From: a virus
Lineage: Duplodnaviria > Heunggongvirae > Uroviricota > Caudoviricetes
Length of the DNA: 46,881 bases
Reading direction: 5' to 3' (one strand)
IMG/VR virus record: IMGVR_UViG_3300018065_000012
The notes under the pieces are model-generated. The model was not told the origin of the DNA. It saw only the letters and a list, made by a program, of their open reading frames with translations, and made no database searches. How positions within the stretch are numbered: the stretch's first letter is position 1; every line of letters begins with the position of its first letter. The position numbers were made by a program, and so were the translations under genes. Shown here in pieces: positions 12,662 through 46,881 of the stretch.

Positions 12662-12677
12662 CTTCAAAGGGGAAATT

Positions 12678-13073: not shown

Positions 13074-13127
13074 AGCACGTCCTTGGTAAGGACGAGGTCA
13101 TGGGTTCGAGTCCCATCGGCAGCTCCA
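13053..13127 (+). tRNA. tRNA-Thr(GGU)
   Basis: Acceptor GCTGCCG/CGGCAGC, D GCTC/GAGC, anticodon stem CGTCC/GGACG loop UUGGUAA, T-arm ATGGG-TTCGAGT-CCCAT, U73, CCA. Confidence 0.8.
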
Positions 13128-13167
13128 AGCCTTTATCACCCCGCTATTTACGTTATGCAAATCATGG

Positions 13168-13244
13168 GCCACCTTAGCACAATTTGGCGGTGCGCTGCTT
13201 TCGTAAGGCAGAGGTTCCCGGTTCGAATCCGGGAGGTGGCTCCA
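13168..13244 (+). tRNA. tRNA-Thr(CGU)
   Basis: Acceptor GCCACCT/AGGTGGC, D GCAC/GTGC, anticodon stem CTGCT/GGCAG loop UUCGUAA, T-arm CCCGG-TTCGAAT-CCGGG, U73, CCA. Confidence 0.8.
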
Positions 13245-22650: not shown

Positions 22651-22671
22651 AATCACTAAAGGACTTGACCG

Positions 22672-23439: not shown

Positions 23440-23464
23440 AGAGAAATCTGGAAGAGGACTTGTA

Positions 23465-24987: not shown

Positions 24988-24991
24988 AGCA

Positions 24992-26499: not shown

Positions 26500-26536
26500 C
26501 GTTTAGTAGAAGATACTCGAAAAGGAGAGAATAACA

Positions 26537-26752
26537 ATGGCACAGTGGTATGCACGGTACAATCAACTCGACAGTGACAAGGTGGAAGAAGCGGGATTTG
26601 TCGAGCAGTCGGAGCGTGATCGTTGGAGTGCTATGTCGGGCATGTCGGCTTGTGGTGGTTTCGATGATGAAATTCCGAACGACTTGATGGACATTGACGG
26701 CAACCCGAACTATTACTACAACACAGGCACGGGCGAAATTGTTCACCTGTAA
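26537..26752 (+). CDS. small acidic hypothetical protein (71 aa)
   Basis: AAAGGAGAG SD then ATG 26537. Confidence 0.5.
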   Translation: MAQWYARYNQLDSDKVEEAGFVEQSERDRWSAMSGMSACGGFDDEIPNDLMDIDGNPNYYYNTGTGEIVHL

Positions 26753-26819
26753 GTGTTGTGGGTTCTGAAAGGTTCTTGTCTGAAAGTCTATTCTTACGGC
26801 TGAGAAGTATGGAGAAGCA

Positions 26820-28055: not shown

Positions 28056-28075
28056 ATAGGTGCAGGAGTTAGCGA

Positions 28076-29311: not shown

Positions 29312-29330
29312 GAAGGTGTAGGAGTCAGAA

Positions 29331-30569
29331 ATGCAGCATCTTTTAGTCAGAGCGCAACAGAAGGAAAAAGTCACAAGCCTTGACCTTTACGTTGATGCTT
29401 CTCAAACAACGACGACAGGAACCAACACATCTGTTGTTAGTGGAAAGCTGGTTGATTCCACCGCAGATTTTCGGTCTTTGAAACCGCATCAAGTGGTTGT
29501 CAACACAACTGATGGTACGGCTACGGTTGTCGACTATGCGGAAAACAGAACAACGTTGGTTTTGAAGAACCACATTTTCACAGCAACAAGCAAAGCATAT
29601 AGTATTGATGACCATACAGGTTCTTCAAGCGACAAATTCAAGTATCCTCAATCAGCTTTAGAAGCGATGCCTTCAACAATTGGTATTATTTCTCGTGTCT
29701 ATATTGCTGACGGTACATATAATGTGATGGGAACAACTGATGTAATTTGTAATCGTGGCGATGTTACAAAAGCTATCCTTTACGTCAACAAAAGTTTTAC
29801 TGCTGGTGGTCGTATAGACATTATAGGCAATGTATCAACTCCGGCGAATGTTGCTTTTAATGGTACAACTCCTTCTTCGAATGCTGGTGTATTCGTTCAA
29901 GGCAGTCAGAAAATAGAAGTTGAAGGAATCAAGGTAACGAATTGTGTGCATGGGATTACTGCTCAAGAAAAATCATCGGTAGAGGTTTTCGATACGATTA
30001 CAAATAGCAACACTTATGGGTTGTCTGTTTTTTCTCAATCGGTTATGGATTGTTTTAGGGTAATTTCTGGCGAGAGTGGTGCGGGAAATTCTTATGGCGC
30101 ATACCTCGAAGACAGCAATTGTTACATTGCAGATTCAGCTTCAGGAGCAAATTCGTCTTCGCTTCGTTATAATACGACAAACAATATCTATGCGGTGTTT
30201 TCAAGATTGAGGGCGTTGGGCAATGTTACTGCCAATGTGAACTTGTCCAATGCTACGGGATGGGGAGTAATTGCAAGCAGAGGCAGCACGGTAGATTTTG
30301 ACTATGTAACGATTGACAGTTCGGGTGCAGGGGGTTTTCAGGCTACATATGAGAGCAATGCCAGTTTAAGGGATTCCGTTGTTTCAAATAATACCACTTG
30401 GGGCATTTCAGCCGACCTTAATTCGTATGTGAACTCCCGTGATATGAGTGGTGCTGGAAATGATTATGGTTTGGTTTCTGAACTTGGCTCCGTTGTTCAG
30501 AAAGTCGGTACACAGCCCACAGGAGTATCAGGAAACGAATTGACAGCTACGGGCGGTACGATTATCTAA
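29331..30569 (+). CDS. Tandem paralog 3 of 3 (beta-helix tailspike-like)
   Basis: Same architecture; AGGAG SD. Confidence 0.55.
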   Translation: MQHLLVRAQQKEKVTSLDLYVDASQTTTTGTNTSVVSGKLVDSTADFRSLKPHQVVVNTTDGTATVVDYAENRTTLVLKNHIFTATSKAYSIDDHTGSSSDKFKYPQSALEAMPSTIGIISRVYIADGTYNVMGTTDVICNRGDVTKAILYVNKSFTAGGRIDIIGNVSTPANVAFNGTTPSSNAGVFVQGSQKIEVEGIKVTNCVHGITAQEKSSVEVFDTITNSNTYGLSVFSQSVMDCFRVISGESGAGNSYGAYLEDSNCYIADSASGANSSSLRYNTTNNIYAVFSRLRALGNVTANVNLSNATGWGVIASRGSTVDFDYVTIDSSGAGGFQATYESNASLRDSVVSNNTTWGISADLNSYVNSRDMSGAGNDYGLVSELGSVVQKVGTQPTGVSGNELTATGGTII

Positions 30570-33891: not shown

Positions 33892-33967
33892 GGGGATGTA
33901 GCTCAGTTGGGAGAGCGCTGCGTTCGCAATGCAGAGGTCAGGGGTTCGAATCCCCTCGTCTCCACCA
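33892..33967 (+). tRNA. tRNA-Ala(CGC) with G3-U70
   Basis: Acceptor GGGGATG/CGTCTCC, D GCTC/GAGC, anticodon stem CTGCG/TGCAG loop UUCGCAA, T-arm AGGGG-TTCGAAT-CCCCT, A73, CCA. Confidence 0.75.
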
Positions 33968-33975
33968 AATATAAT

Positions 33976-34052
<77 letters not shown>

Positions 34053-34054
34053 TT

Positions 34055-34130
34055 GGGGGCATAGCTCAGCTGGGAGAGCACAAGCTTTGCAAGCTTGGGG
34101 TCAGGAGTTCGAGTCTCCTTGCCTCCACCA
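34055..34130 (+). tRNA. tRNA-Ala(UGC) with G3-U70
   Basis: Acceptor GGGGGCA/TGCCTCC, D GCTC/GAGC, anticodon stem CAAGC/GCTTG loop UUUGCAA, T-arm AGGAG-TTCGAGT-CTCCT, A73, CCA. Confidence 0.8.
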
Positions 34131-34137
34131 AATACAA

Positions 34138-34271
34138 AAGGCACGCTTCAGTGAAGAGTTACTTCCCTTCGGCGGACGAAGTTCAGGTTCGATTCCTGAC
34201 CCTCCAACCATGATGGAGGGTAGTGTAATGGTAGCACGCGTAAAATATCTCTTTGCGTCTTTTGGTGCCTT
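34138..34271 (+). ncRNA. Bracketed element C1 with a permuted tRNA-like core (acceptor closed by an ACCATGA loop that encodes the discriminator and CCA)
   Basis: Terminal helix AAGGCAC/GTGCCTT; 5' module GCTTCAGTGAAGAGTTACTTC; T-arm TCAGG-TTCGATT-CCTGA; CCCTCCA-ACCATGA-TGGAGGG; D-arm GTGT-AATGGTA-GCAC; 3' module ...CTCTTTGCGTCTTTTGG. The anticodon region is aberrant. Confidence 0.5.
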
Positions 34272-34280
34272 TTATATTTT

Positions 34281-34388
34281 TCAGCACGCTTCAGTGATGA
34301 CATACTTCTTGGTTCAACTCCAACATCGCCCTCTATATGGGCGATGGTGCCACGTGGGTGGCGGTGTTGTTACGTTTTTTGGTGCTGA
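34281..34388 (+). ncRNA. Bracketed element C2 with a permuted tRNA-like core lacking an anticodon arm
   Basis: Terminal helix TCAGCAC/GTGCTGA; T-arm TTGG-TTCAACT-CCAA; acceptor CATCGCC-loop-GGCGATG; D-arm GCCA-CGTGGG-TGGC; 3' module CGTTTTTTGG. Confidence 0.5.
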
Positions 34389-34404
34389 ACTTTTTGAATA
34401 AATT

Positions 34405-34513
34405 CCGGCACGCTTCAGCGTGGGCTTACTTCTTTCTTAAAAAAAGAACCTGCCTGTTCGATTCAGGTGTTGGGTGGACCCGGTACAATTCGCTCATGCG
34501 TCTTTTGGTGCTG
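34405..34513 (+). ncRNA. Bracketed element C3 (anticodon-like arm and T-arm, degenerate acceptor and D parts)
   Basis: Terminal helix CCGGCAC/GTGCTGG (one G-U); TTCTTT-CUUAAAA-AAAGAA arm; T-arm GCCTG-TTCGATT-CAGGT; 3' module GCGTCTTTTGG. Confidence 0.45.
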
Positions 34514-34518
34514 GATTT

Positions 34519-34593
34519 AGCGGTGTTAGTGTATTGGTTGCACATTTGGTTCCCAGCCAGAAGGAGCCAGTTCGAGTCTGGTACACCGCTCCA
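34519..34593 (+). tRNA. tRNA-Gly(CCC)
   Basis: Acceptor GCGGTGT/ACACCGC, D GTGT/GCAC, anticodon stem TTTGG/CCAGA loop UUCCCAG, T-arm GCCAG-TTCGAGT-CTGGT, U73, CCA. Confidence 0.75.
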
Positions 34594-34596
34594 TTT

Positions 34597-34673
34597 GTCA
34601 AGGTAGCTCAGCACGGTAGAGCACTGGCCTGAAGAGCCGGGTGTCGTCGGTTCAAATCCGACCCTTGACGCCA
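34597..34673 (+). tRNA. tRNA-Phe(GAA)
   Basis: Acceptor GTCAAGG/CCTTGAC, D GCTC/GAGC, anticodon stem CTGGC/GCCGG loop CUGAAGA, T-arm GTCGG-TTCAAAT-CCGAC, G73, CCA. Confidence 0.8.
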
Positions 34674-34676
34674 CAC

Positions 34677-34752
34677 GCAGGCGCATGTTCCAAGGCTGGC
34701 GACGGGGATTCCAAATCCTTGTGGGTAGGTTCGATTCCTACCGTCTGCGCCA
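34677..34752 (+). tRNA. tRNA-Trp(CCA), copy 1
   Basis: Acceptor GCAGGCG/CGTCTGC, irregular D-arm, anticodon stem GGGGA/TCCTT loop UUCCAAA, T-arm GTAGG-TTCGATT-CCTAC, G73, CCA. Confidence 0.7.
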
Positions 34753-34755
34753 TAC

Positions 34756-34830
34756 AGGGCCATAGTTTAATTGGTAAAACGGGGGATTCCAAATCCTTTG
34801 ATGCGGGTTCGATTCCTGCTGGCCCTGCCA
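34756..34830 (+). tRNA. tRNA-Trp(CCA), copy 2 (identical anticodon arm, different body, A1-U72)
   Basis: Acceptor AGGGCCA/TGGCCCT, D GTTT/AAAC, anticodon stem GGGGA/TCCTT loop UUCCAAA, T-arm GCGGG-TTCGATT-CCTGC, G73, CCA. Confidence 0.7.
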
Positions 34831-34836
34831 ATCTGT

Positions 34837-34928
34837 GGAGAGTGTTCCCCACGGCAGACTGTAAATCTGTTGCCCATCAGAATAAGTGGGGTGGCGGCGA
34901 ATGGGTTCAATTCCCTCACTCTCCACCA
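34837..34928 (+). tRNA. atypical tRNA-Tyr(GUA)-like, 92 nt: 8-bp acceptor, no canonical D-arm, enlarged variable region (possible pseudo-tRNA)
   Basis: Acceptor GGAGAGTG/CACTCTCC; anticodon arm GCAGA-CUGUAAA-TCTGT; only TT-CCCC-ACG between the acceptor and anticodon stems; GTGGGG in the variable region could pair with CCCC; weak T-stem GGG/CCC; A73, CCA. Confidence 0.4.
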
Positions 34929-34932
34929 TTAA

Positions 34933-35018
34933 GGAGCGGTAGTCTAATTGGTAAGGCAGTGGGCTGTAAACCCACCGGCATTGCGCCATTGGAGGTTCGA
35001 GTCCTCCCCGCTCCACCA
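34933..35018 (+). tRNA. tRNA-Tyr(GUA), class II
   Basis: Acceptor GGAGCGG/CCGCTCC, D GTCT/AGGC, anticodon stem GTGGG/CCCAC loop CUGUAAA, variable arm CGGCATTGCGCCAT, T-arm GGAGG-TTCGAGT-CCTCC, A73, CCA. Confidence 0.8.
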
Positions 35019-35039
35019 TTTTTCTTTTTCAGCAAAAAT

Positions 35040-35061
35040 CTTTTATATTCGGTTGTATAAT
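35040..35061 (+). promoter_or_regulatory. weaker promoter-like site sharing the GGTTGTATAAT -10 element (no good -35)
   Basis: TATAAT 35056-35061 preceded by GGTTG as in the other promoters; the -35 region is CAAAAA. Confidence 0.3.
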
Positions 35062-35083
35062 ATAAGGGTAATTCTCACAGGGG

Positions 35084-35338
35084 ATGAATATGGAAACTCG
35101 GCCAGAAACGGGCAAAATGAAGTTTGGCGACGACTGGTCTGGAATATTCATCCGAGGCGACAATGCTTTCAATTATCATATGCAACTCAAAGAAGTTTTG
35201 AAAGACAATGGCGGTGAATTCGGCATTATTGCGAAACATACAATCCGAGATTTGATTGATCTTTTGGAATCTTGCGAAGAGCATAATGATATCAAACCGC
35301 AAAAATTGAAATCATTCGAGGAATGCCGTTATGAATGA
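35084..35338 (+). CDS. hypothetical protein (84 aa)
   Basis: ORF-track frame; overlaps the dCMP deaminase start by 8 nt. Confidence 0.45.
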   Translation: MNMETRPETGKMKFGDDWSGIFIRGDNAFNYHMQLKEVLKDNGGEFGIIAKHTIRDLIDLLESCEEHNDIKPQKLKSFEECRYE

Positions 35339-35786
35339 TAGACCATCCATTGACCAGACGATGATGGATATTGCAAAAACTTGGTCCTTTCGATCAAGAT
35401 GTTTACGGCGACAAGTGGGTTCAGTAATCGTAAAAGACAAACATGTTTTGACTTCTGGTTATAATGGCCCGCCAAAAGGGTTGCCTCATTGCGATGAATG
35501 TGGTGGTTGTTTGCGGCAAGAAATGGATTTGCCGTCAGGCGAACGTCAAGAACTTTGCAGAGGTTCTCACGCAGAATTGAATGCAATTATTCAAGCGGCA
35601 ATATTTGGGATAAGCGTAAAAGGCGCAACGCTGTATTGCACAAACTTTCCTTGTAACTTTTGTGCCAAAGCAATTGTTCAAGCTGAGATTAAAAAAGTCA
35701 TTTACGAAGATGACTATACGGAAGACGATAACATGGCAAAACAAATGCTTGAACATGTTGGAATTAAAATGGAGAAATTTGAATGA
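35331..35786 (+). CDS. cd: dCMP deaminase (cytidine/deoxycytidylate deaminase family)
   Basis: Zinc-binding HAELNAI and PCNFCAKAI (H[AC]E...PCxxC) motifs; size and context as in T4-type dCMP deaminases. Confidence 0.8.
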   Translation: MNDRPSIDQTMMDIAKTWSFRSRCLRRQVGSVIVKDKHVLTSGYNGPPKGLPHCDECGGCLRQEMDLPSGERQELCRGSHAELNAIIQAAIFGISVKGATLYCTNFPCNFCAKAIVQAEIKKVIYEDDYTEDDNMAKQMLEHVGIKMEKFE

Positions 35787-35962
35787 GCTGGAAAGATTTT
35801 CTTTACGGCGCGGCATCTGTTCTCGACTTGTCTGGTTCAATGGGCAATGCGCAAGTGAATGAAATTTTGCGCAAGTCTGACGCGGAAGCATTGAGGTCAG
35901 ATTGGGAAGCAGTTGGACAAGACATGTGGAAGGCGATTGAACAATCTGAAGATGTCGGGTGA
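35783..35962 (+). CDS. small acidic hypothetical protein (59 aa), translationally coupled to cd
   Basis: ATGA overlap with the cd stop; MSWKDFLYGAASVLDLSGSMGNAQVNEILRKSDAEALRSDWEAVGQDMWKAIEQSEDVG*. The stop lies inside the next tRNA. Confidence 0.45.
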   Translation: MSWKDFLYGAASVLDLSGSMGNAQVNEILRKSDAEALRSDWEAVGQDMWKAIEQSEDVG

Positions 35963-36038
35963 GCGCAGCTGGTGCTGTGAGTGGCCTGCAAAGCCATTTG
36001 GCCTTTGGGTCCAACTGGTTCGATTCCAGCATCCGACT
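35954..36038 (+). tRNA. tRNA-Sec-like (8/4 'allo-tRNA' architecture) tRNA with GCA (Cys) anticodon
   Basis: 8-bp acceptor GTCGGGTG/CATCCGAC; 6-bp D-stem CGCAGC/GCTGTG with 4-nt loop TGGT; 6-bp anticodon stem AGTGGC/GCCATT with loop CUGCAAA; long variable arm TGGCCTTTGGGTCCAA; 4-bp T-stem CTGG/CCAG with loop TTCGATT; U73; no encoded CCA. Confidence 0.5.
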
Positions 36039-36056
36039 CTAATTTGGAGAACATGA

Positions 36057-36311
36057 ATGCCAAAAAGAAGTTTCCCGCTCAAGATCAGTTTTGATCATGA
36101 AATTGATCGAGATACGATGTTTTTTCTTGCTGTAAAGTTTGCGAGAGAATATCCAAAAGCAGCGACACAAATAATTGGAGCATTGGAAGGGGAACGGAAA
36201 TATTGCAAGATCAATTGTCCGTTCCCTTTTGTATGTAGTGAGTTTCCTTGCAAAACGCTTTGTTGTAACGCAGACTGCTGCGACAACGGCCACGCTTATA
36301 GGATGAGCTGA
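36057..36311 (+). CDS. hypothetical Cys-rich protein (84 aa)
   Basis: GGAG SD. The C-terminus has CKINCPFPFVCSEFPCKTLCCNADCCDNGH. Confidence 0.45.
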   Translation: MPKRSFPLKISFDHEIDRDTMFFLAVKFAREYPKAATQIIGALEGERKYCKINCPFPFVCSEFPCKTLCCNADCCDNGHAYRMS

Positions 36312-36685
36312 TGCAATACGAACTTGAAAATGGTTACAAGGTTTGGGTGAACGCGAAGACTTACCGCTCGAAATTGAACAAGCAAGTTTGCATCAAATGT
36401 TTGAAACAGTATTGGCCAGATGCAGATTCCGTTTGGGATGTTCAAGCAGAACTGAAATGGGAAGAAGGCAGGTTGTATATTTGTCCTTGTTCTTCTGTTA
36501 ACGGGCGCGATGAAAACCGCAGAGCAGGCCGATACAACGAAGGCCGGTTGATCGAACACGACCCACCGGAAGCTTGCCCATTCAAAACAGAGCATCTTGT
36601 CAGTTGTAATAAACAAGGTTTCATCTATTATAAAAGCCGCATTGAGGAGTATTGCGAAAAGAATTTCAAAAAGGTGAAAAGGTGA
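36311..36685 (+). CDS. hypothetical protein (124 aa, Cys-containing)
   Basis: TGATG overlap with the upstream gene. Confidence 0.5.
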   Translation: MQYELENGYKVWVNAKTYRSKLNKQVCIKCLKQYWPDADSVWDVQAELKWEEGRLYICPCSSVNGRDENRRAGRYNEGRLIEHDPPEACPFKTEHLVSCNKQGFIYYKSRIEEYCEKNFKKVKR

Positions 36686-36873
36686 AGCTGATTGTAAAAT
36701 TTGTCGTCTTGATTGCTGGAAGTTATCTTTGCTATTTGTCTTGGGCTGAGCCAAAAACAATTATTTGGCTGTATGGAAATTATATCATGCCGGTTTTCTT
36801 TGCATGTATTCCGTTTTATGCAGCATGGTGGTGCTATCAAGACTTAAAGAGCGCCCGTAGCTCAGATGGATAG
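36682..36873 (+). CDS. small membrane protein (about 63 aa, two hydrophobic helices)
   Basis: GTG start overlapping the upstream TGA (GTGA). VKLIVKFVVLIAGSYLCYLSW...IMPVFFACIPFYAAWWCY. The 3' end overlaps tRNA-Arg(CCG). The ORF-track frame starts at 36652. Confidence 0.4.
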   Translation: MKLIVKFVVLIAGSYLCYLSWAEPKTIIWLYGNYIMPVFFACIPFYAAWWCYQDLKSARSSDG

Positions 36874-36927
36874 AGCGTCTGCCTCCGGAGCAGAAGGTCA
36901 CAGGTTCGAGTCCTGTCGGGCGTGCCA
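36851..36927 (+). tRNA. tRNA-Arg(CCG)
   Basis: Acceptor GCGCCCG/CGGGCGT, D GCTC/GAGC, anticodon stem TCTGC/GCAGA loop CUCCGGA, T-arm ACAGG-TTCGAGT-CCTGT, G73, CCA. Confidence 0.8.
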
Positions 36928-36946
36928 AACATACGAGGATGAAAGA

Positions 36947-37204
36947 ATGATAATCATGGAGCATGGAAACGTCGATAAACAAGTACCCAATCAAGGCGCG
37001 TGGGATATTCATGTTGCGGGGCAAGAAAAATATCCACTGGTGGTGATCCTTTGTCCCAAATGTCAAAAAGTATCTTGTCTCCGTAATCATACGATTCATC
37101 GCGACGGGACAGTTTCACCAAGCTTGGTCTGTCCAAGAGATGAATGTAATTTTCATGAAATGATCAAGTTGAAAGACTGGAAAGGGTTGCCTCAAAAATT
37201 GTAG
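36947..37204 (+). CDS. small zinc-ribbon-like protein (85 aa)
   Basis: ATG 36947 after GAGGATGAAAGA (the ORF-track frame from 36866 opens inside the tRNA). CPKCQ...CPRDEC. Confidence 0.45.
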   Translation: MIIMEHGNVDKQVPNQGAWDIHVAGQEKYPLVVILCPKCQKVSCLRNHTIHRDGTVSPSLVCPRDECNFHEMIKLKDWKGLPQKL

Positions 37205-37207
37205 TTT

Positions 37208-37283
37208 GGGCCGGTAACTCAATTGGTAGAGAACCGTTCTTATACAGCGGTAGTCGTTGGTTCGAATCCAACCCGGCCTACCA
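37208..37283 (+). tRNA. tRNA-Ile(UAU)
   Basis: Acceptor GGGCCGG/CCGGCCT, D ACTC/GAGA (3 bp), anticodon stem CCGTT/AGCGG loop CUUAUAC, T-arm GTTGG-TTCGAAT-CCAAC, A73, CCA. Anchored to ORF-track TTG 37223. Confidence 0.75.
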
Positions 37284-37304
37284 AATTCAAGATGGAGTGG
37301 AATT

Positions 37305-37559
37305 ATGAAAGAGGGACGCATAAGCAAAGGTGGCGTGGGAAATCCTCCAACAAGACCAAGACCCAAGCCACCAAAGGGACAAGGAGGCTCTCAAAAGTTG
37401 AAAGAAGTTTTGGAAGCCCTTGAATTCTATGCTGATGAAAGCAATTGGAAAAACGGGACGTCAGTTCATTACGAATGGGCGACGTTTGCTGAGTTGGATG
37501 AAGGCAAACGGGCAAGAAAAGCACTTGAAAAATATCGGGGTGTAGGAAAGTCTGGTTAA
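37305..37559 (+). CDS. hypothetical protein (84 aa)
   Basis: ATG 37305 after GGAGTGG (the ORF-track frame starts at 37257 inside the tRNA). The last 24 nt overlap tRNA-Pro(CGG). Confidence 0.4.
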   Translation: MKEGRISKGGVGNPPTRPRPKPPKGQGGSQKLKEVLEALEFYADESNWKNGTSVHYEWATFAELDEGKRARKALEKYRGVGKSG

Positions 37560-37613
37560 TCCGCTACGTTCGGGACGTAGAGATCGCCGGTTCAAATCCG
37601 GCCACCCCGACCA
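37536..37613 (+). tRNA. tRNA-Pro(CGG)
   Basis: Acceptor CGGGGTG/CACCCCG, D GGAA/ATCC (3 bp), anticodon stem CTACG/CGTAG loop UUCGGGA, T-arm GCCGG-TTCAAAT-CCGGC, A73, CCA. Confidence 0.8.
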
Positions 37614-37629
37614 CTTTAGGAAAAGGCTG

Positions 37630-37764
37630 ATGAACGATCCAAAAGCTTATCAATACACAGGCTCATTGAGTGACAAGTTCTTTATTGTGTTGATCATTTT
37701 AGCAATGATTTCTGTTCCTATTTTTATTATAATTGCGTTTTTGTATTGGGTTCCAAGGAGCTAA
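37630..37764 (+). CDS. small single-TM membrane protein (44 aa)
   Basis: AGGAAAAGG SD then ATG 37630. MNDPKAYQYTGSLSDKFFIVLIILAMISVPIFIIIAFLYWVPRS*. The stop lies 1 nt before the next ATG. Confidence 0.4.
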   Translation: MNDPKAYQYTGSLSDKFFIVLIILAMISVPIFIIIAFLYWVPRS

Positions 37765-37765
37765 A

Positions 37766-38008
37766 ATGCTTTACACGGTTGGCGAGACAGAAAAATACGA
37801 GCAATATATAAAAGAGCAAGGCACGATTTCAAAGGCAGTTGGTGGCTCAGTTTGGAGTTCAAAAGAAGCCGCGCAAAAGTATTTGAAAGAAAGAGGGTTG
37901 CTTGGAAAATTTACTGTTTACGGCATTGACGCCGGTTGGAATGATACTGAATATACAGGTAATCCTTGGCGTGATTTGAAAATTGTTGCAAAAATAATTG
38001 AACTTTGA
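37766..38008 (+). CDS. hypothetical protein (80 aa)
   Basis: ATG 37766 after AAGGAG (the ORF-track frame starts at 37733). Confidence 0.5.
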   Translation: MLYTVGETEKYEQYIKEQGTISKAVGGSVWSSKEAAQKYLKERGLLGKFTVYGIDAGWNDTEYTGNPWRDLKIVAKIIEL

Positions 38009-38082
38009 GCGGGTGTAGCTTAATGGTAAAGCTCCAGCCTTCCAAGCTGATCACGTGGGTTCGATTCCCATCGCCCGCTCCA
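38009..38082 (+). tRNA. tRNA-Gly(UCC)
   Basis: Acceptor GCGGGTG/CGCCCGC, D GCTT/AAGC, anticodon stem CCAGC/GCTGA (C27/A43 mismatch) loop CUUCCAA, T-arm GTGGG-TTCGATT-CCCAT, U73, CCA. Confidence 0.7.
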
Positions 38083-38087
38083 TTTAA

Positions 38088-38161
38088 GCGGCTGTAGCTC
38101 AGTGGTAGAGCGCAAGGTTGCCAATCTTGCTACGAGGGTTCGATTCCCTTCAGCCGCTCCA
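38088..38161 (+). tRNA. tRNA-Gly(GCC)
   Basis: Acceptor GCGGCTG/CAGCCGC, D GCTC/GAGC, anticodon stem CAAGG/TCTTG loop UUGCCAA, T-arm GAGGG-TTCGATT-CCCTT, U73, CCA. Confidence 0.8.
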
Positions 38162-38223
38162 AAATTAAAGATGAAACGGAGATATATGATGAGCCAATCA
38201 CCTTTTGTTCGGGGGATTACATC

Positions 38224-38481
38224 ATGGACGCTCCAAAATGCGAACATCTGTTACCATTTTTGCAAGCTCAAACGCGGCTGATAACAAAACATTTGGGCGA
38301 GCATAAATGGTTCCAAAAAATTGAAAGTGAAAATGAAGCAGTTGGAGATTTCATTGAAAAGTTTGGGTGGGTAATGCGAGAATTCTTTTGTGGTTATTGT
38401 TGTGAACATCGTTATGAATGCGACATTGCCATAGAATACGATTTCTTGCCGCCAGAGAGGAAAAAGCAAAATGACCCTTGA
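38224..38481 (+). CDS. hypothetical protein (85 aa, Cys/His-containing)
   Basis: ORF-track frame; a GGGGGA lies upstream. Confidence 0.4.
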   Translation: MDAPKCEHLLPFLQAQTRLITKHLGEHKWFQKIESENEAVGDFIEKFGWVMREFFCGYCCEHRYECDIAIEYDFLPPERKKQNDP

Positions 38482-39274
38482 AGAAGCACGCAAACTTGTT
38501 TTGAAATCATTCAACAAAAGTGATTTCTATTACAACCATCAATCGCCGCATGGCTATACAAACTTCATTGACGGGATGGCGTGGGTTGGTTTATTGTGCG
38601 GCGCATGTCATCTTGTGGATGACAAAGAGTTGGCGGCATTAGCAGAAAACTACTTGAGAATGCTTTTGAAAGTTGGACCGGATGCAAGAAATTATGCGCC
38701 GATGAAAGTAAGAGACGACTGGATCAAATCTGAAACAGCTCCCGGATTTTGGTACCGTAAAAAGCCGCAGTCCTTCGCGGGGCCAGCGGCTTTATTGTTT
38801 GCTATCAACTGCGGCGCAAAATTGGATAACCCCTTCAACATTGAATCACGTGCCAAGTGGATGCGTTTCTTAAATCCATTCTTTGGTTATCTTGTGCGTT
38901 GGTTTCATTGGTTCAGACAGCATATCAATAGTCAGTTTATCGCTCATTTGATTAACGATTCCAAACCGCCAAGCTCAATGCTTTGGTTGTGCGAGGAAAA
39001 TCCTTTTTTCAGCGCTATTGCTGGAATTGAATGCAGTGTTGAATACCCGAAATCATGGAGCCGGTTTCAAAAGTATGAAACAAAAGACGTGGACGATATT
39101 CAACCGCTGAAAAACCGGAAACCATCAGCTTGGATTTTCAGAAGTTGGCCCAAGGCCGAATACACTGGCGCACTTCCTTACGCGGGCAGTGCTTATACGC
39201 CAACGGCAATGGTTGTTGGTGAATATTTGCAACAGCATTTGAGGAAGAAAAATGCCAAAGTACAAGACAGTTGA
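38471..39274 (+). CDS. hypothetical protein (267 aa, Trp/Phe-rich)
   Basis: Overlaps the upstream gene by 11 nt. No motif recognised. Confidence 0.5.
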   Translation: MTLEEARKLVLKSFNKSDFYYNHQSPHGYTNFIDGMAWVGLLCGACHLVDDKELAALAENYLRMLLKVGPDARNYAPMKVRDDWIKSETAPGFWYRKKPQSFAGPAALLFAINCGAKLDNPFNIESRAKWMRFLNPFFGYLVRWFHWFRQHINSQFIAHLINDSKPPSSMLWLCEENPFFSAIAGIECSVEYPKSWSRFQKYETKDVDDIQPLKNRKPSAWIFRSWPKAEYTGALPYAGSAYTPTAMVVGEYLQQHLRKKNAKVQDS

Positions 39275-39491
39275 GGAACTTGCGCAAGCATTCCAAACAG
39301 GTGAGTTTGGAGCAGATGGTCAAGTTATCAAGATTGAATCGGATGACATAAACGCTTCATTGGTTCGGGTAACTTGCGCAGAGGAAAGTCCTGACGAGTT
39401 TGAAATAATGTTCGAAGGATACGTACAAGGCGGTTATACAAAAGTGAAAAACGAGCTTGGGCCGTCTTTTGGAAGAGCGAAAAAAGAATGA
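39252..39491 (+). CDS. hypothetical acidic protein (79 aa)
   Basis: Overlaps the upstream gene by 23 nt. Confidence 0.45.
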   Translation: MPKYKTVEELAQAFQTGEFGADGQVIKIESDDINASLVRVTCAEESPDEFEIMFEGYVQGGYTKVKNELGPSFGRAKKE

Positions 39492-39494
39492 CGT

Positions 39495-39571
39495 CGGGGT
39501 GTGGCTCAGCTTGGTAGAGCGCTTGACTGGGGGTCAAGAGGTCGCTGGTTCAAATCCAGTCACCCCGACCA
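39495..39571 (+). tRNA. tRNA-Pro(GGG)
   Basis: Acceptor CGGGGTG/CACCCCG, D GCTC/GAGC, anticodon stem CTTGA/TCAAG loop CUGGGGG, T-arm GCTGG-TTCAAAT-CCAGT, A73, CCA. Confidence 0.8.
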
Positions 39572-39586
39572 TTTTGGAAACGGATA

Positions 39587-39814
39587 ATGATAGACAAAAA
39601 GCAAATAGAAATCGAAACACTAAAGCATAAAGTCAACGAACAAAAAGCGTTCATAATGCATTTGAAACGACTTTATGGCAGCGCGAGGCGGTGGGAACTT
39701 TCAAGAACGACACAGTGCCACAAGTGCCACGTCGACGCGGATGCTGAATTTTTTGCATTCATGAGAGCAATGCCTCATATTGAATGGGACAACTGGGGAA
39801 ACGCTAAAAAATGA
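39587..39814 (+). CDS. hypothetical protein (75 aa)
   Basis: ORF-track frame; Cys/His pairs (CHKCH). Confidence 0.45.
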   Translation: MIDKKQIEIETLKHKVNEQKAFIMHLKRLYGSARRWELSRTTQCHKCHVDADAEFFAFMRAMPHIEWDNWGNAKK

Positions 39815-40113
39815 GTTGGGCGAAGTATGCAAAAGAAACGTTGAAAAAGGGTCTTGACGCGGCTGTAAAGCCTCGTGGAAGCTCAATGAAGCCAAAGATT
39901 GAAAGTGGTGACGTTGTAACCATTGCCCCTTGTGACCCGTTCAGACTCAAGGTGGATGATATTGTTTTGGTTACAGTAAAAGGGAAAGACTATTTGCATT
40001 TGATCAAGGCGGTTGATAGCAAAAGGTTTTTGATTGGAAACAATCGTGGCGGGATAAATGGCTGGGTTGGCTGGAACTCAATTCATGGAAAAGCGGTAGA
40101 GGTTTCAAAATGA
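39811..40113 (+). CDS. S24/S26-like serine peptidase fold protein (LexA/UmuD/signal-peptidase-like catalytic domain only)
   Basis: GSSMKPKIESGDVVTI (cf. GDSMxPxxxxGDxxxV) and a downstream Lys in HLIKAV. ATGA overlap with the upstream gene. Confidence 0.45.
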   Translation: MSWAKYAKETLKKGLDAAVKPRGSSMKPKIESGDVVTIAPCDPFRLKVDDIVLVTVKGKDYLHLIKAVDSKRFLIGNNRGGINGWVGWNSIHGKAVEVSK

Positions 40114-41002: not shown

Positions 41003-41494
41003 ATGAGAAAGTGGCGCGTAATCCGAGATTTTTACCTTGGAGAGTCTGATCGCATCAAAGCGAGAAATCCGAATGAAGACAATTTCATGCTTTATGAAGG
41101 CACAATTATCTATGAGGCAGAAAATACCGATCGCGTAGTCATCAATGGAAAAGTTTATCATTTCAGAATTGGAACAGTTTTTACTCGCTTTTGCGTTCTT
41201 GAAGAAACACTTCCAGAATCGGTTACAGGCGACACAATGCCGGGTGGGGTGTTACCAGCGGACCTTGTTTGGAAAGGTCCAAGTGATCTGACCACCATCA
41301 TCGCCGGGAAACGATATCAAACCCCAGATAGATTTTTTGAGGAGAGTCTCGTTGTTGCAATTCGTGGTTTGATTGTTGCCGATGAAAATGTCGATGGATT
41401 CACAATCATCGACGACCAAACATTTGAAATGAAAGAAACCTACACAAAACCGAAGGATTGGATCATGTGTGGGTATGTTAAGAAAAGCTCATGA
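41003..41494 (+). CDS. hypothetical protein (163 aa)
   Basis: ORF-track frame; its stop overlaps the start of the collagen-like gene (ATGA). Confidence 0.5.
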   Translation: MRKWRVIRDFYLGESDRIKARNPNEDNFMLYEGTIIYEAENTDRVVINGKVYHFRIGTVFTRFCVLEETLPESVTGDTMPGGVLPADLVWKGPSDLTTIIAGKRYQTPDRFFEESLVVAIRGLIVADENVDGFTIIDDQTFEMKETYTKPKDWIMCGYVKKSS

Positions 41495-44400
41495 CACGTA
41501 GCCTTCTCAGCCAATCACTCCAAGTCGATGCTTCCGCAACTTATGATGATACTATAGCTTCAGTACATACTCAACCTGTTGCGGAAGGTCAAGCCAATCT
41601 TGAAGGTGATCTGAATGTTCTTCGTACGTTATTGAAGAATTTGATCGGAGAACCTGATTGGTATGACCCCGCTGAATTATCGATGAAGGAACTTGCTGAT
41701 AAGTTCCTGATGGAAGCACTCCATCAGAGTGGTTTTGAAAATGTCACGGTTGGAACGGGAACCAGCACAACAGTTTTTGATGGCCCAATCAAGTCAATCG
41801 CGAATCACAACAATGGTCAAGGTTCTTCCACTGTTGAGGGCGTCGTCGTTGACTCGGAAAGGGCATATCGACTCTTTATTCGAGACCATGATTCAGGCGA
41901 CCCAATTTCAGACGGCAGCGGAAATGCAGTTTATGGCCGTTTGAGTTTTGGCGCTGGTACATATACGATAAGTTGGCACACCTTCAATGGTGGTTCTGAG
42001 TCAACTTACAACTTCACTTCCCCTATCGACCTTGATCTTGCGTTTGTCGCTGTTTCAAGGCAGTTCAAAAATCTTGATTGGAATCATTTTCTTGACGTTG
42101 AATTTTATGACATCGGTATCGGCGGCATTGGTTCGCAAGGTAACCAAGGAAATCAAGGTGACGTTGGCATCGATGGAGTTCAGGGGCCGCAAGGAAACAC
42201 GGGTATTGACGGCGTTCAAGGCGGCCAAGGACGCCAAGGAAATCAAGGCGAAGTTGGTGAGTCTGGCGTTCAAGGTTATCAGGGTTGGCAAGGTACCATT
42301 GGAGTTGATGGCGTTCAAGGAGCGCAAGGAAATCAAGGAAATATTGGTATCGACGGTGTTCAAGGCGCACAAGGCAATCAGGGTGACATTGGTACAGACG
42401 GTGTCCAAGGTGGTCAAGGCGTTCAGGGTTGGCAGGGAACGGGTGATACAGGCCCGCAAGGAAACGACGGTGTTCAGGGCTGGCAAGGTGATTTTGGAGC
42501 GCAAGGTAATCAAGGCGACGAGGGCACAGGCAATCAGGGCAACCAAGGGCCAGCAGGAATTGATGGACAGCAAGGTGCTCAAGGTGATGTAGGTATTCAG
42601 GGCTATCAAGGCAATCAGGGCTTCATCGGCGTTCAAGGATTTTCTCCGCAAGGTTGGCAAGGCCCACAAGGTGGAATTGGCGTTGATGGCGTCCAAGGAA
42701 ATCAAGGACGACAAGGTAATCAGGGCAACGCTGGCGACACTGGCGGGCAAGGTCGTCAGGGTGCGCAAGGCGCTGTCGGTGCTGATGGATTCCAAGGAAA
42801 TCAAGGCGACATAGGCGTTGATGGAGTTCAAGGGCCGCAAGGCAATGTTGGTTTGCAAGGCGTTCAAGGATGGCAAGGCGACCAAGGCGTTGACGGTGTT
42901 CAGGGCAACCAAGGTAATCAGGGTGATGTTGGCTCTGATGGTGCTGACGGTGCGCAAGGCCGTCAGGGAAATCAGGGTCAAGTTGGTGACATCGGCGCAC
43001 AAGGAGCGCAAGGCTGGCAAGGACTTCAAGGTATTGACGGAGTCCAAGGCAATCAGGGTGTTGCGGGTGACATCGGTTTCCAAGGCGCACAGGGTTATCA
43101 AGGAACAGGCGTACAAGGTAGTCAGGGAAACCAAGGAGACATCGGTGTTGACGGTGTTCAGGGAACGCAAGGCAATCAAGGTGACATCGGTGTTGATGGA
43201 GTTCAGGGGCCGCAGGGTGACGTTGGTATTGACGGTGTCCAAGGCGTTCAAGGTTCGCAAGGCAATCAAGGTCAAGTTGGAGATACCGGAGCGCAGGGTA
43301 ACCAAGGACGCCAAGGAAATCAAGGTCAAGTTGGAGATACAGGCTCTCAAGGCAACCAAGGAGATATCGGCGTTCAGGGTGCGCAGGGCAATCAAGGACT
43401 TCAGGGTGACCAAGGCGTAGATGGTGTTCAGGGCAGTCAAGGTAACCAAGGCGACATTGGTGTTGATGGAGTACAGGGTGCGCAGGGCAATCAAGGACTT
43501 CAGGGCGACCAAGGAATTGACGGAGTTCAAGGCACTCAAGGTTGGCAAGGTATAGTTGGCTTCCAAGGTAATCAGGGTTTGCAAGGGATAGACGGTGTTC
43601 AAGGTAATCAAGGTTCGCAAGGAAATCAAGGTCAAGTTGGAGATACGGGTTCGCAAGGAACACAGGGCAACCAAGGAGATGTAGGACAAGACGGCGTTCA
43701 AGGGAACCAAGGCCGTCAAGGAAATCAGGGCGACATCGGTGTTGACGGTGTTCAGGGCAGTCAAGGTAATCAGGGCGCTGTTGGCGTTGATGGAGTCCAA
43801 GGCGTGCAGGGCGATGTCGGTTCTGATGGAGTCCAAGGTGTTCAGGGAAATCAGGGTTGGCAAGGAGATGTCGGCATTGATGGCGTTCAAGGCCCACAAG
43901 GTAACGTGGGTGTCGACGGCGTTCAAGGCGTACAAGGCTCTCAGGGTTGGCAGGGAATTGACGGAGTTCAAGGCGTACAAGGTTGGCAAGGACTTCAAGG
44001 CGACCAAGGAATAGATGGCGTTCAGGGCAATCAGGGAAATCAGGGTTCACAAGGCAATCAGGGTGAAGTAGGCGATACTGGAACACAAGGGACGCAGGGC
44101 AACCAAGGCATTATTGGACAAGATGGAGTTCAGGGTAACCAAGGTCGTCAAGGGAATCAAGGTGCTATCGGTGTTGATGGCGTTCAAGGCAATCAGGGGA
44201 ATCAAGGCGACCAAGGGATAGATGGAGTACAGGGTAATCAAGGTTGGCAAGGAACGGGCGACACAGGGGCGCAAGGCAGTCAAGGCAATCAGGGTTGGCA
44301 AGGTGAATTTGGCCCACAAGGAGATGAAGGCACAGGCAATCAGGGTTCACAGGGGCCAGCGGGAATTGATGGTACACAGGGTTTCCAAGGTTCTGACGGT

Positions 44401-46881
44401 ACGCAAGGTTGGCAAGGCAATCAAGGTTATTTGGGGCCACAGGGTTATTCTCCGCAAGGTTGGCAAGGAGCGCAGGGAAATCAAGGCGATATTGGTTCTG
44501 ATGGAGTTCAGGGCGTACAAGGAAATCAAGGGGACGTAGGTGATACAGGCATTCAAGGAAATCAAGGCAATCAGGGCGATATCGGTATTGATGGAATCCA
44601 AGGGCCACAGGGGAATCAAGGTAATCAGGGCGCAGTTGGTGTTGATGGCGTCCAAGGCGTTCAAGGAAACCAAGGTGACGTAGGTGATACAGGTAGTCAG
44701 GGGGCGCAGGGCAACCAAGGCATTATTGGACAAGACGGAGTTCAGGGCAACCAAGGTTCACAAGGAAACCAAGGTCAAGTTGGCGATACAGGCTCTCAAG
44801 GAAATACTGGTGCTGATGGAGTTCAAGGCAATCAAGGAGCGCAGGGGAACCAAGGCTTACAAGGCGATACTGGCGATACAGGCGTACAAGGAAATCAAGG
44901 TTGGCAGGGTGTTGTTGGCGCTGATGGAGTTCAAGGTGCGCAAGGGGACGTAGGTGCGGATGGCGTACAAGGCAATCAGGGTTGGCAAGGTGCTATCGGT
45001 GTTGATGGAGTTCAGGGCAGTCAAGGAAATCAGGGCGATATTGGTGCGGATGGTGTTCAGGGTTCACAAGGGAATCAAGGCGTTGTTGGTTCTGATGGAG
45101 TCCAAGGCGTTCAAGGCAACCAAGGCGACGTAGGCGATACGGGCATTCAGGGTTCACAAGGTTCGCAGGGCAACGTTGGTCAGGACGGGGTTCAGGGAAA
45201 TCAGGGAGCGCAAGGAAATCAAGGTCAGGTTGGAGATACAGGTTCGCAAGGTAATCAGGGCTGGCAAGGAACAGGCGATACAGGCGTACAAGGAGTGCAG
45301 GGAAACCAAGGCGATGTTGGCTCTGATGGAGTTCAAGGCGCACAAGGTGACGTAGGAGATACAGGCGCTCAAGGTAATCAGGGCGCAGTTGGTGCGGATG
45401 GAGTCCAAGGGAATCAGGGAAGTCAAGGAGACGCTGGTACTGATGGCGTACAAGGCAATCAGGGGAATCAGGGTTCTATTGGCGTCGATGGGGTTCGGGG
45501 TAATCAGGGACGACAAGGTAATCAGGGCAATGCTGGCGACACAGGCACACAGGGGAATCAGGGCAACCAAGGAAATGTCGGTCAGACAGGCGTACAAGGG
45601 AGTCAGGGAAACCAAGGCGATGAAGGTACTGACGGGGCGCAAGGCAATCAAGGCAATACAGGCGCACAAGGGAATCAGGGCAACCAAGGAAACGTAGGAC
45701 AAGACGGTGTTCAGGGAAATCAGGGAAACCAAGGCGATGAAGGTTTCCAAGGTTATCAAGGGACAAATCCCGGTGTTCAAGGGCCGCAAGGTTGGCAAGG
45801 ACAAGATGGCCTCGGCGCTGCTGCTACTCTTGGAGAGTTGTACGCAAAGGATTATGGAACAGGACAAACGCTGGATACCGTCAACACGTGGGAAGTGGTT
45901 GAAGCCCTTGCGACGGCTGGCAATAGTTACAACACCACTCTAAGCACCGTAAACCATACCATTACAGTGTTGAAAACGGCACTGTATAACATGGATTGGC
46001 AAATATCGTTCAGTGGCACAGCAAACCATCAAATGGAGTTTGCTGTCTTTGTAAACAATGTTGCTCAGAATGACACGTATCAAGAACGAAAACTGAATGC
46101 AAATGGTGATACAGGCAATGTTGGCGGCACTGCAATTCTGTCATTGACTGCTAACGACGTTGTTGATTTGCGTGTTCGGGATACGACATCTTCTGGAAGC
46201 ATCACTGTAAATCATGCGAATCTTAACGTTGATGAAATTGTTGGTGTTGGGCCGCAAGGAGTTCAGGGCGCACAAGGCAATGATGGAGTTCAGGGAAATC
46301 AAGGTAATGTAGGTGATACAGGCGATACAGGAGCGCAAGGAAATCAAGGTTGGCAAGGTGATGCTGGCACGGACGGCGTACAGGGAAATCAAGGCAATCA
46401 GGGCTGGCAAGGAACGGGCGATACAGGAGCGCAAGGAAATCAAGGAGATGTAGGACAAGATGGAGTCCAAGGCAATCAGGGTAATCAAGGGGATGTAGGC
46501 ACTGATGGTTCACAAGGAAATCAAGGCTTACAAGGCGATACTGGCGATACAGGTGCACAAGGAAATCAAGGTAATGTAGGTGATACAGGCGTTCAAGGCG
46601 CGCAGGGTCGTCAAGGGAATCAGGGCGACATTGGCGATACAGGAGCGCAGGGGAATCAAGGAAACGTAGGACAAGATGGAGTTCAGGGAAATCAAGGCAA
46701 TCAAGGATGGCAAGGTACGGGTGATACAGGGCCACAAGGGTATCAAGGTTGGCAGGGAGATGAAGGTTCACAAGGCAATCAAGGATGGCAAGGTTGGCAA
46801 GCAAGCGGTGGCGAAGAAAGAGCGTTGTTCTGTTGTTCGTTCTTTACTTCAAAGCGGTCATACATTGAGTATTCACAAACA
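41491..46881 (+). CDS. Giant collagen-like (Gly-X-Y) protein, open at the window end (more than 1796 aa): N-terminal 210-aa non-collagen domain, about 1200 aa of GXY triplets, an internal 150-aa C1q/BclA-CTD-like globular insert, then GXY resumes
   Basis: Read in frame from ATG 41491 with no stop to 46881. It is absent from the ORF track, which appears to list only stop-closed ORFs. Translation from 42121 is GGIGSQGNQGNQGDVGIDGVQGPQGNTGID...; the insert at about 45790-46250 has beta-rich TNF/C1q-like sequence (...ITVLKTALYNMDWQISFSGTANHQMEFAVFVNN...DLRVRDTTSSGSITVNHANLNV). Confidence 0.75.
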   Translation, partial: MTRSLLSQSLQVDASATYDDTIASVHTQPVAEGQANLEGDLNVLRTLLKNLIGEPDWYDPAELSMKELADKFLMEALHQSGFENVTVGTGTSTTVFDGPIKSIANHNNGQGSSTVEGVVVDSERAYRLFIRDHDSGDPISDGSGNAVYGRLSFGAGTYTISWHTFNGGSESTYNFTSPIDLDLAFVAVSRQFKNLDWNHFLDVEFYDIGIGGIGSQGNQGNQGDVGIDGVQGPQGNTGIDGVQGGQGRQGNQGEVGESGVQGYQGWQGTIGVDGVQGAQGNQGNIGIDGVQGAQGNQGDIGTDGVQGGQGVQGWQGTGDTGPQGNDGVQGWQGDFGAQGNQGDEGTGNQGNQGPAGIDGQQGAQGDVGIQGYQGNQGFIGVQGFSPQGWQGPQGGIGVDGVQGNQGRQGNQGNAGDTGGQGRQGAQGAVGADGFQGNQGDIGVDGVQGPQGNVGLQGVQGWQGDQGVDGVQGNQGNQGDVGSDGADGAQGRQGNQGQVGDIGAQGAQGWQGLQGIDGVQGNQGVAGDIGFQGAQGYQGTGVQGSQGNQGDIGVDGVQGTQGNQGDIGVDGVQGPQGDVGIDGVQGVQGSQGNQGQVGDTGAQGNQGRQGNQGQVGDTGSQGNQGDIGVQGAQGNQGLQGDQGVDGVQGSQGNQGDIGVDGVQGAQGNQGLQGDQGIDGVQGTQGWQGIVGFQGNQGLQGIDGVQGNQGSQGNQGQVGDTGSQGTQGNQGDVGQDGVQGNQGRQGNQGDIGVDGVQGSQGNQGAVGVDGVQGVQGDVGSDGVQGVQGNQGWQGDVGIDGVQGPQGNVGVDGVQGVQGSQGWQGIDGVQGVQGWQGLQGDQGIDGVQGNQGNQGSQGNQGEVGDTGTQGTQGNQGIIGQDGVQGNQGRQGNQGAIGVDGVQGNQGNQGDQGIDGVQGNQGWQGTGDTGAQGSQGNQGWQGEFGPQGDEGTGNQGSQGPAGIDGTQGFQGSDGTQGWQGNQGYLGPQGYSPQGWQGAQGNQGDIGSDGVQGVQGNQGDVGDTGIQGNQGNQGDIGIDGIQGPQGNQGNQGAVGVDGVQGVQGNQGDVGDTGSQGAQGNQGIIGQDGVQGNQGSQGNQGQVGDTGSQGNTGADGVQGNQGAQGNQGLQGDTGDTGVQGNQGWQGVVGADGVQGAQGDVGADGVQGNQGWQGAIGVDGVQGSQGNQGDIGADGVQGSQGNQGVVGSDGVQGVQGNQGDVGDTGIQGSQGSQGNVGQDGVQGNQGAQGNQGQVGDTGSQGNQGWQGTGDTGVQGVQGNQGDVGSDGVQGAQGDVGDTGAQGNQGAVGADGVQGNQGSQGDAGTDGVQGNQGNQGSIGVDGVRGNQGRQGNQGNAGDTGTQGNQGNQGNVGQTGVQGSQGNQGDEGTDGAQGNQGNTGAQGNQGNQGNVGQDGVQGNQGNQGDEGFQGYQGTNPGVQGPQGWQGQDGLGAAATLGELYAKDYGTGQTLDTVNTWEVVEALATAGNSYNTTLSTVNHTITVLKTALYNMDWQISFSGTANHQMEFAVFVNNVAQNDTYQERKLNANGDTGNVGGTAILSLTANDVVDLRVRDTTSSGSITVNHANLNVDEIVGVGPQGVQGAQGNDGVQGNQGNVGDTGDTGAQGNQGWQGDAGTDGVQGNQGNQGWQGTGDTGAQGNQGDVGQDGVQGNQGNQGDVGTDGSQGNQGLQGDTGDTGAQGNQGNVGDTGVQGAQGRQGNQGDIGDTGAQGNQGNVGQDGVQGNQGNQGWQGTGDTGPQGYQGWQGDEGSQGNQGWQGWQASGGEERALFCCSFFTSKRSYIEYSQT

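Follow-up and report, generated by a model that had tools for sequence, protein, structure and literature searches.

According to the textbook rule, bacteria need lysidine to read the codon AUA. A gene for an isoleucine tRNA that carries the anticodon UAU itself, located in a tRNA array of an uncultured jumbo myovirus, therefore raises the questions of whether this anticodon is genuine, how AUA is read by the phage and how exceptional such a tRNA is. The window analyzed here, i.e., the whole stretch of 46,881 nucleotides (∼47 kb), was examined together with its flanks and belongs to a genome that measures 338 kb or more, since identical genes recur on metagenomic contigs, the longest of which is 338 kb.

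The window encodes a real tRNA-Ile with a UAU anticodon, a predicted direct reader of AUA, and this tRNA is fairly ordinary among phages. With a probability of roughly three in four, we consider it to be a functional tRNA-Ile of the elongator kind that reads AUA through its unedited UAU anticodon, within a complete tRNA set that lacks a tRNA-Ile2(CAU) in the sequence seen. The features discussed in the text are collected in Table 1.

Table 1. Features of the window, with the evidence for each
Feature	Position	Strand	Evidence or remark
tRNA array 1 (32 tRNA genes)	2585-13244	+	ARAGORN, Rfam
Initiator-type tRNA(CAU)	2585-2659	+	ARAGORN; Rfam 57.5 bits; compared with E. coli metZ and T5 tRNA-fMet
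tRNA-Ile(GAU), AUU/AUC reader	10323-10399	+	ARAGORN; Rfam 76.8 bits; sequence
Elongator-type tRNA-Met(CAU)	11546-11623	+	ARAGORN; Rfam 65.5 bits; compared with E. coli metT and ileX
tRNA array 2 (15 tRNA genes, including tRNA-Ile(UAU))	33892-39571	+	ARAGORN, Rfam
Two tRNA-like genes	34676-34752, 34836-34925	+	Rfam tRNA-Sec 37.6 and 28.9 bits, below threshold
SelC*-like tRNA-Cys(GCA)	35953-36039	+	Rfam tRNA-Sec 60.6 bits (gathering score 47)
tRNA-Ile(UAU)	37208-37283	+	ARAGORN, Rfam, MFE fold, acceptor-stem parse, orthologue covariation
Caspase-like Peptidase_C14, HNH endonuclease, Macro/DarG-like domain protein	156-1103, 3096-3632, 10766-11188		In or around the array
Pyruvoyl-dependent arginine decarboxylase	11687-12289	+	Pfam PvlArgDC 111 bits
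957-aa protein	14415-17288		Made of 'VDS' repeats
Six tandem paralogues of ∼250 aa	21886-26499	+	Tail-fibre-like PHROG hits
Three tandem paralogues of ∼411 aa	26820-30569	+	Faint beta-helix hits
151-aa deaminase	35331-35786		ComEB/dCMP deaminase 108 bits, TadA 29.5 bits
Giant ORF	41491-46881	+	Runs past the window end; no Pfam hit

Anatomy and conservation of the tRNA-Ile(UAU) gene

ARAGORN predicted a 76-nt canonical tRNA-Ile(tat) at this locus, with the anticodon at position 34. The Rfam family RF00005 covered positions 37208-37280 over the whole model, with 60.2 bits and an E value of ∼1e-10, versus a gathering score of 29. In the Rfam alignment the anticodon loop is the 7-nt CUUAUAC, in which U33 is followed by UAU at positions 34-36 and by A37, and the MFE fold yields a cloverleaf identical to that of ARAGORN and Rfam. 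The UAU anticodon, as originally proposed from the letters of the sequence, is thus upheld by all three approaches. The same sequence-only reading had considered that the anticodon loop might be shifted by one nucleotide on automated folding. No such shift was seen, and the objection fails because the Rfam alignment, which fixes UAU at positions 34-36, and the MFE fold agree on the register.

The acceptor stem consists of G1:U72, G2:C71, G3:C70, C4:G69, C5:G68, G6:C67 and G7:C66, the discriminator is A73, the CCA is encoded in the gene, and the pair U12:A23 is present. The D stem of 3-4 bp contains an A10/A25 mismatch and closes an 8-nt D loop, while the variable loop measures 5 nt and the acceptor/T configuration is 7/5. 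In terms of canonical elongator features, the 7-bp acceptor is accompanied by a 5-bp T stem, U33, a purine at position 37 and a GTTCGAATC-type T loop. The tRNA departs from the E. coli IleRS identity set at two places: C instead of A occupies position 38, and the 29:41 pair is G:C instead of C:G. It likewise lacks the C34 that defines tRNA-Ile2, position 34 being T in the window gene as well as in each of the three orthologues. Near nucleotide relatives were sought by BLAST against phages and E. coli genomes, which returned generic tRNA similarity only (Lys, Arg, Phe).

According to Mukai et al. 2017 (PMC5389517), UAU ranks among the predominant anticodons of allo-tRNAs, and some members of this class lie in tRNA clusters of phages. 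An allo-tRNA is recognized by its 8/4 or 9/3 configuration, its extended variable arm and its elongated D stem, which is capped by a tetraloop. Such an identity was considered for the tRNA-Ile(UAU) and is excluded by its 7/5 fold, its 5-nt variable loop and its 3-4 bp D stem.

Related contigs were reached through homologues of a 267-aa marker protein, encoded next to the array. A tRNA-Ile(tat) is present in all three related contigs that have the marker protein inside a tRNA array (L131, L132 and L134, in which this protein is 72%, 70% and 48% identical, respectively, to that of the window). The four tRNA sequences were aligned and subjected to a covariation test with 500 shuffles and slid controls. 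In the alignment, 98.8% of the cells pair, and compensatory changes were found in 13 of the 21 stem pairs. None of the 500 shuffles matched the observed pairing and covariation values, and the slid controls paired in 28-46% of the cells. Invariant among the four orthologues are the CUUAUA loop, U12:A23, A73 and the pairs 4:69 and 5:68. The latter are the sole invariant pairs of the acceptor stem; both are C:G and correspond to the E. coli TilS determinants C4:G69 and C5:G68, as found in E. coli ileX. The pattern, in an alignment of four sequences only, suggests that the tRNA takes part in translation and that its identity elements are conserved.

The tRNA arrays and their CAU members

In cultured phages (INPHARED), megablast of positions 36000-40000 gave no match, and in IMG/VR both the exact tRNA pattern and the neighbouring 267-aa protein were absent. 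Contigs with homologues of the marker protein encode a T4-like sheath, tube, baseplate and prohead protease, and the ORFs of the window include tail-fibre-like paralogues, glycosyltransferases and epimerases, among others.

According to ARAGORN, the window contains 47 tRNA genes, which share the + strand and are distributed between two arrays; the CCA is encoded in 46 of them. In array 1 the tRNA genes are interspersed with small ORFs, which encode HNH, glycosyltransferase, epimerase, Macro domain and PvlArgDC proteins. The two arrays together comprise 44 distinct anticodons, by which all 61 sense codons are covered. The four-codon boxes each have G34, U34 and C34 tRNAs, with the exception of the Arg CGN box (ACG and CCG), and every NNR pair has a U34 and a C34 tRNA. 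The AUN box is served by GAU, UAU and CAU, such that UAU is simply the U34 member of this box in a full phage set. The tRNA-Ile(GAU) carries bacterial tRNA-Ile1-like elements, namely C4:G69, U12:A23, C29:G41, A37, A38 and A73.

The 151-aa deaminase encoded in the array was considered as a phage TadA acting on tRNA-Arg(ACG), and was rejected in view of its much higher score against ComEB/dCMP deaminase. Since tRNA-Arg(ACG) needs the host TadA and the array deaminase is dCMP-deaminase-like, the set still depends on modification enzymes of the host, and a rationale of autonomy is weakened accordingly.

Two CAU tRNAs had been reported in the sequence-only reading, one of them with an unpaired 1:72 position. 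Both are present, the first starting at 2585 rather than 2584 and having U opposite U at 1:72. Their identities had been regarded as unassignable from sequence. They were classed here against E. coli metT, ileX and metZ and the annotated T5 tRNAs, and the stem pairs distinguish an initiator-type tRNA at 2585 from an elongator Met-type tRNA at 11546.

In the initiator-type tRNA, the U1xU72 mismatch is combined with A73 and an encoded CCA, whereas E. coli metZ has C1xA72 instead. The CAU tRNA of L134 and the annotated phage T5 tRNA-fMet have U1xU72 as well, and the acceptor of the window's tRNA (TGCGG...CCGCU) matches that of the T5 tRNA-fMet. Its D stem has A11:U24, with G10 A11 G12 A13 paired to U22 C23 U24 C25, whereas the tRNA at 11546 has C11:G24. 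Its anticodon stem, with U29:A41, G30:C40 and G31:C39, contains two of the three initiator G:C pairs, and the T5 initiator only G30:C40. The CAU tRNA of L134 resembles the window's tRNA in these initiator features too. Both the T loop (UGCAAUU, position 55 being G) and the 7-nt D loop (AGUAGAA, without the conserved G18-G19) are unusual, so that the usual tertiary pairs between the D and T loops would be altered.

The elongator-type tRNA combines G1:U72, G2:C71, C3:G70, G4:C69 and G5:C68 with the loop UUCAUAC, A73 and an encoded CCA. The TilS elements C4:G69 and C5:G68, which the sequence-only reading had proposed to look for in the CAU tRNAs, are absent from both of them and present in the UAU tRNA. 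On the basis of these comparisons, the tRNA at 2585 can with reasonable confidence be taken as an initiator and that at 11546 as an elongator tRNA-Met. With the two CAU tRNAs so assigned, there is no lysidine-dependent AUA reader in the sequence examined: a lysidine-dependent tRNA-Ile2(CAU) was found neither in the window nor in its flanks, and the 10 kb before the window start and the ∼2.4 kb beyond its end contain neither a tilS-like gene nor another tRNA.

Occurrence of UAU tRNAs and the reading of AUA

A genomically encoded UAU anticodon had been described as rare. This holds for classical bacteria, among which nine tilS-less species with a tRNA-Ile(TAT) were listed, plus a few bearing both systems (Taniguchi et al. 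2013, PMC3575796); neither phages, as seen in IMG/VR, nor candidate-phyla bacteria, as seen in a genome scan, conform to it. Known examples for comparison include bacterial precedents in which UAU reads AUA with no need of lysidine (PMC3575796), and UAU tRNAs are numerous in phage loci as well. Using the UAU-specific search pattern CTTATA-N12-16-GGTTCGAATCC, at least 120 loci were matched in IMG/VR; ARAGORN confirmed a tRNA-Ile(tat) in 98 of the 120 matches listed, and among these matches the UAU tRNAs form at least 71 sequence clusters. A less biased IMG/VR sample, seeded on the T-arm plus ACCA, comprised 120 loci with 681 tRNAs. Twelve of these loci (10%) contain a tat tRNA, and the sample includes 22 gat and 55 cat tRNAs. 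UAU tRNA-Ile is therefore rare in classical bacteria and not rare in phages.

Among species-representative genomes, at least 120 loci matched the UAU pattern, and a tat tRNA was present in 102 of the 120 matches listed, mostly in Patescibacteria, Chloroflexota and Mucilaginibacter, with a few archaea. Canonical tRNA-Ile(UAU) genes occur here (loci L264-L383) in numerous species-level genomes, namely of Patescibacteria (Saccharibacteria and Paceibacterota among them), Chloroflexota and Mucilaginibacter, far beyond the nine species of 2013.

Three cultured proteobacterial phages, T5, Xanthomonas phage Xoo-sp13 and Aeromonas phage 65, contain CAU tRNAs and no UAU tRNA. T5 was ruled out as a carrier of tRNA-Ile(UAU), since its annotation gives a tRNA-Ile2(CAU). 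A concatenate of eight recurrent IMG/VR UAU tRNAs was without a near match in cultured phages, and a literature search returned nothing usable on phage tRNA-Ile(UAU) or anticodon censuses.

The phage itself makes use of the codon: AUA accounts for 99 of the 12,187 codons in 50 + strand ORFs of the window (8.1 per 1000, or 15% of the Ile codons) and is present in 36 of these ORFs. It would be read through a U34:A Watson-Crick pair by the unedited UAU anticodon. The use of UAU rather than CAU would render AUA decoding free of TilS capacity during infection. That a UAU anticodon risks misreading AUG is a legitimate concern and a fair point of the initial reading; the dedicated C34 tRNA-Met would presumably compete for AUG and so keep misreading in check, because each NNG codon in the set has its own C34 reader.

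No IleRS gene was found in the sequence examined, and charging would be carried out by the host IleRS, presumably via A35, U36, A37, A73, C4:G69 and U12:A23. In systems of the Mycoplasma mobile type, the IleRS has Arg or Lys at the position of E. coli Trp905, or is of eukaryote type, U34 is unmodified and the ribosome rejects AUG. The E. coli IleRS (Trp905) handles UAU tRNAs poorly, and Arg variants accept UAU (PMC3575796); charging of the phage tRNA thus hinges on the IleRS of its own host, which would probably be of the UAU-tolerant type. The presence of CAU without UAU tRNAs in T5, Xoo-sp13 and Aeromonas phage 65 fits such an IleRS constraint, and hints that the host of the present phage has a UAU-tolerant enzyme.

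The M. mobile tRNA-Ile2(UAU) (PMC3575796) resembles the phage tRNA in its gene-encoded UAU and in the lysidine-free reading of AUA, which the phage tRNA would share, as well as in the lack of a companion tRNA-Ile(CAU), as far as the phage set was examined. In contrast, M. mobile possesses a co-adapted IleRS (Arg865) and ribosome and no tilS, whereas the phage tRNA relies on the IleRS and ribosome of the host. E. coli ileX with TilS, like the T5 tRNA-Ile2(CAU), performs the same AUA job, and the phage tRNA shares A73, C4:G69 and C5:G68 with ileX. Unlike ileX, however, it has U at position 34 and hence no lysidine target, and its body is no more similar to ileX than to other tRNAs. The same-strand array and the coverage of the whole code are shared with the near-complete sets of jumbo phage XacN1 (56 tRNAs for 20 amino acids) and cluster M mycobacteriophages (PMC7950403); the window phage differs in its lineage, which is an uncultured one, in its 44 anticodons with their regular G/U/C34 layout and in its non-canonical tRNAs.

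Several other explanations of the gene were weighed. The decoding of AUA might be redundant, if the TilS substrate tRNA-Ile2 were the tRNA at 11546 or some CAU tRNA beyond the sequence and the UAU tRNA only a back-up. Both AUA systems coexist in some bacteria (PMC3575796), the annotated T5 tRNA-Ile2(CAU) has U4:A69, which indicates that the E. coli TilS rule is not universal, and most of the genome of at least 338 kb lies outside the sequence seen, where a tRNA-Ile2(CAU), tilS or ileS could be located. We nevertheless regard redundancy as unlikely. The tRNA at 11546 has G4:C69 and G5:C68 together with the Met-like G2:C71 and C3:G70, and its assignment as Ile2 would leave an otherwise complete set without an elongator Met; moreover, the CAU tRNAs of L132 and L134 are likewise of Met or initiator type, and the flanks are without tilS. 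The tRNA could alternatively be a supplement to codon usage, supplied because the host reads AUA poorly, rather than part of a strategy of autonomy. This is possible, though we doubt it: the AUA use of 8.1 per 1000 codons would agree with it, and 54 of the 98 IMG/VR UAU loci listed have four tRNAs or fewer and most are without a GAU or CAU tRNA, so that UAU is often carried alone. In the window, however, the gene belongs to a complete series of 44 anticodons, in which common codons have tRNAs as well, and this is not selective supplementation. It is very improbable, finally, that the locus is a decoy or a non-translational RNA (bait for an anticodon nuclease or a tRNA-like regulatory element) or a decaying pseudogene; the A10/A25 mismatch in the D stem and the non-consensus position 38 might be so interpreted, but the 60-bit cloverleaf is complete with its encoded CCA, compensatory changes keep all four stems across the clade, and the anticodon loop is invariant.

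The origin of the tRNA is a separate matter. Both C4:G69 and C5:G68 occur in 27 of 80 (34%) IMG/VR UAU tRNAs versus 82 of 574 (14%) others (Fisher p ∼8e-5). We tentatively put forward, as a rather speculative proposal, that many phage tRNA-Ile(UAU) might be C34-to-U34 derivatives of tRNA-Ile2, in which the surface that binds the synthetase and TilS has been kept and which have been selected to escape the host TilS. When an nhmmer profile of the four orthologues with masked anticodons was used as a test of descent, ileX scored 34.1 and metT 29.7, with Val, Arg and Lys tRNAs as the top matches. The pairs 4:69 and 5:68 are suggestive of descent from tRNA-Ile2, to which overall body similarity lends no support. 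If it were true, phage UAU tRNAs would mark hosts with an IleRS and ribosome that tolerate unmodified UAU.

With an elongator tRNA-Ile that reads AUA directly as the preferred reading, the textbook requirement for lysidine appears to be routinely bypassed on phage genomes. The advance is a modest one, given that this kind of UAU tRNA was already known in bacteria, as were full tRNA sets in jumbo phages, and that UAU tRNAs turned out to be common in viral contigs. A conserved natural family of UAU tRNA-Ile with likely identity elements is now available, whose charging and AUA/AUG fidelity can be studied in TilS-bearing hosts, and which is relevant to AUA codon reassignment and to the self-sufficiency of jumbo-phage translation.

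Non-canonical tRNAs and neighbouring genes

The non-canonical tRNAs at 34676-36039, including the SelC*-like tRNA-Cys, are more unusual than the tRNA-Ile(UAU). The SelC*-like tRNA-Cys is the only GCA tRNA and the sole Cys-codon reader of the set. Its acceptor measures 8-9 bp and its D stem 6 bp, the latter capped by a tetraloop; the variable arm is long, the T stem has 4 bp, the discriminator is U73, and CCA is not encoded. Judged by this predicted structure, it would fit the 'SelC* tRNA-Cys' class that Mukai et al. 2017 (PMC5389517) reported from anaerobic Firmicutes, Thermodesulfobacteria, Nitrospirae and deltaproteobacteria, and it may offer a hint of the host. An anaerobic ribonucleotide reductase (NrdD) and its activase are encoded immediately upstream of the window (L128, 5033-7649), which suggests an anaerobic host.

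One of the two tRNA-like genes has the anticodon CCA and the other apparently GUA, the latter with a 9-bp acceptor and a 3-bp T stem, i.e., an allo-tRNA-like 9/3 configuration. Each directly precedes a canonical tRNA whose anticodon is identical to its own (Trp at 34756 and Tyr at 34933, respectively).

Among the related contigs, the array of L132 includes a tRNA with a CUA anticodon (11721-11795; an amber suppressor, designated 'Pyl' by ARAGORN), which hints at stop-codon recoding in part of the phage group; the window itself contains no suppressor tRNA. L134 (GCA_014728035.1, WJMJ01000060.1) carries a tRNA array and a phage sheath gene, and was binned in a MAG labelled Candidatus Lokiarchaeota. 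This binning is probably an artefact, because the initiator tRNA of the contig is of bacterial type with a 1:72 mismatch.

Several protein-coding genes of the window were also of interest. The tandem paralogues that together span 21886-30569 look like diversified receptor-binding proteins. The high-GC, purine-rich stretch at 42000-46881 is part of the giant ORF at the window end, which has 53% GC and a strong purine skew and reaches 1894 aa on contig L001. The arginine decarboxylase, an agmatine-making enzyme encoded inside the array, is also present in the relative whose marker protein is 72% identical (L131, 6972-7523).
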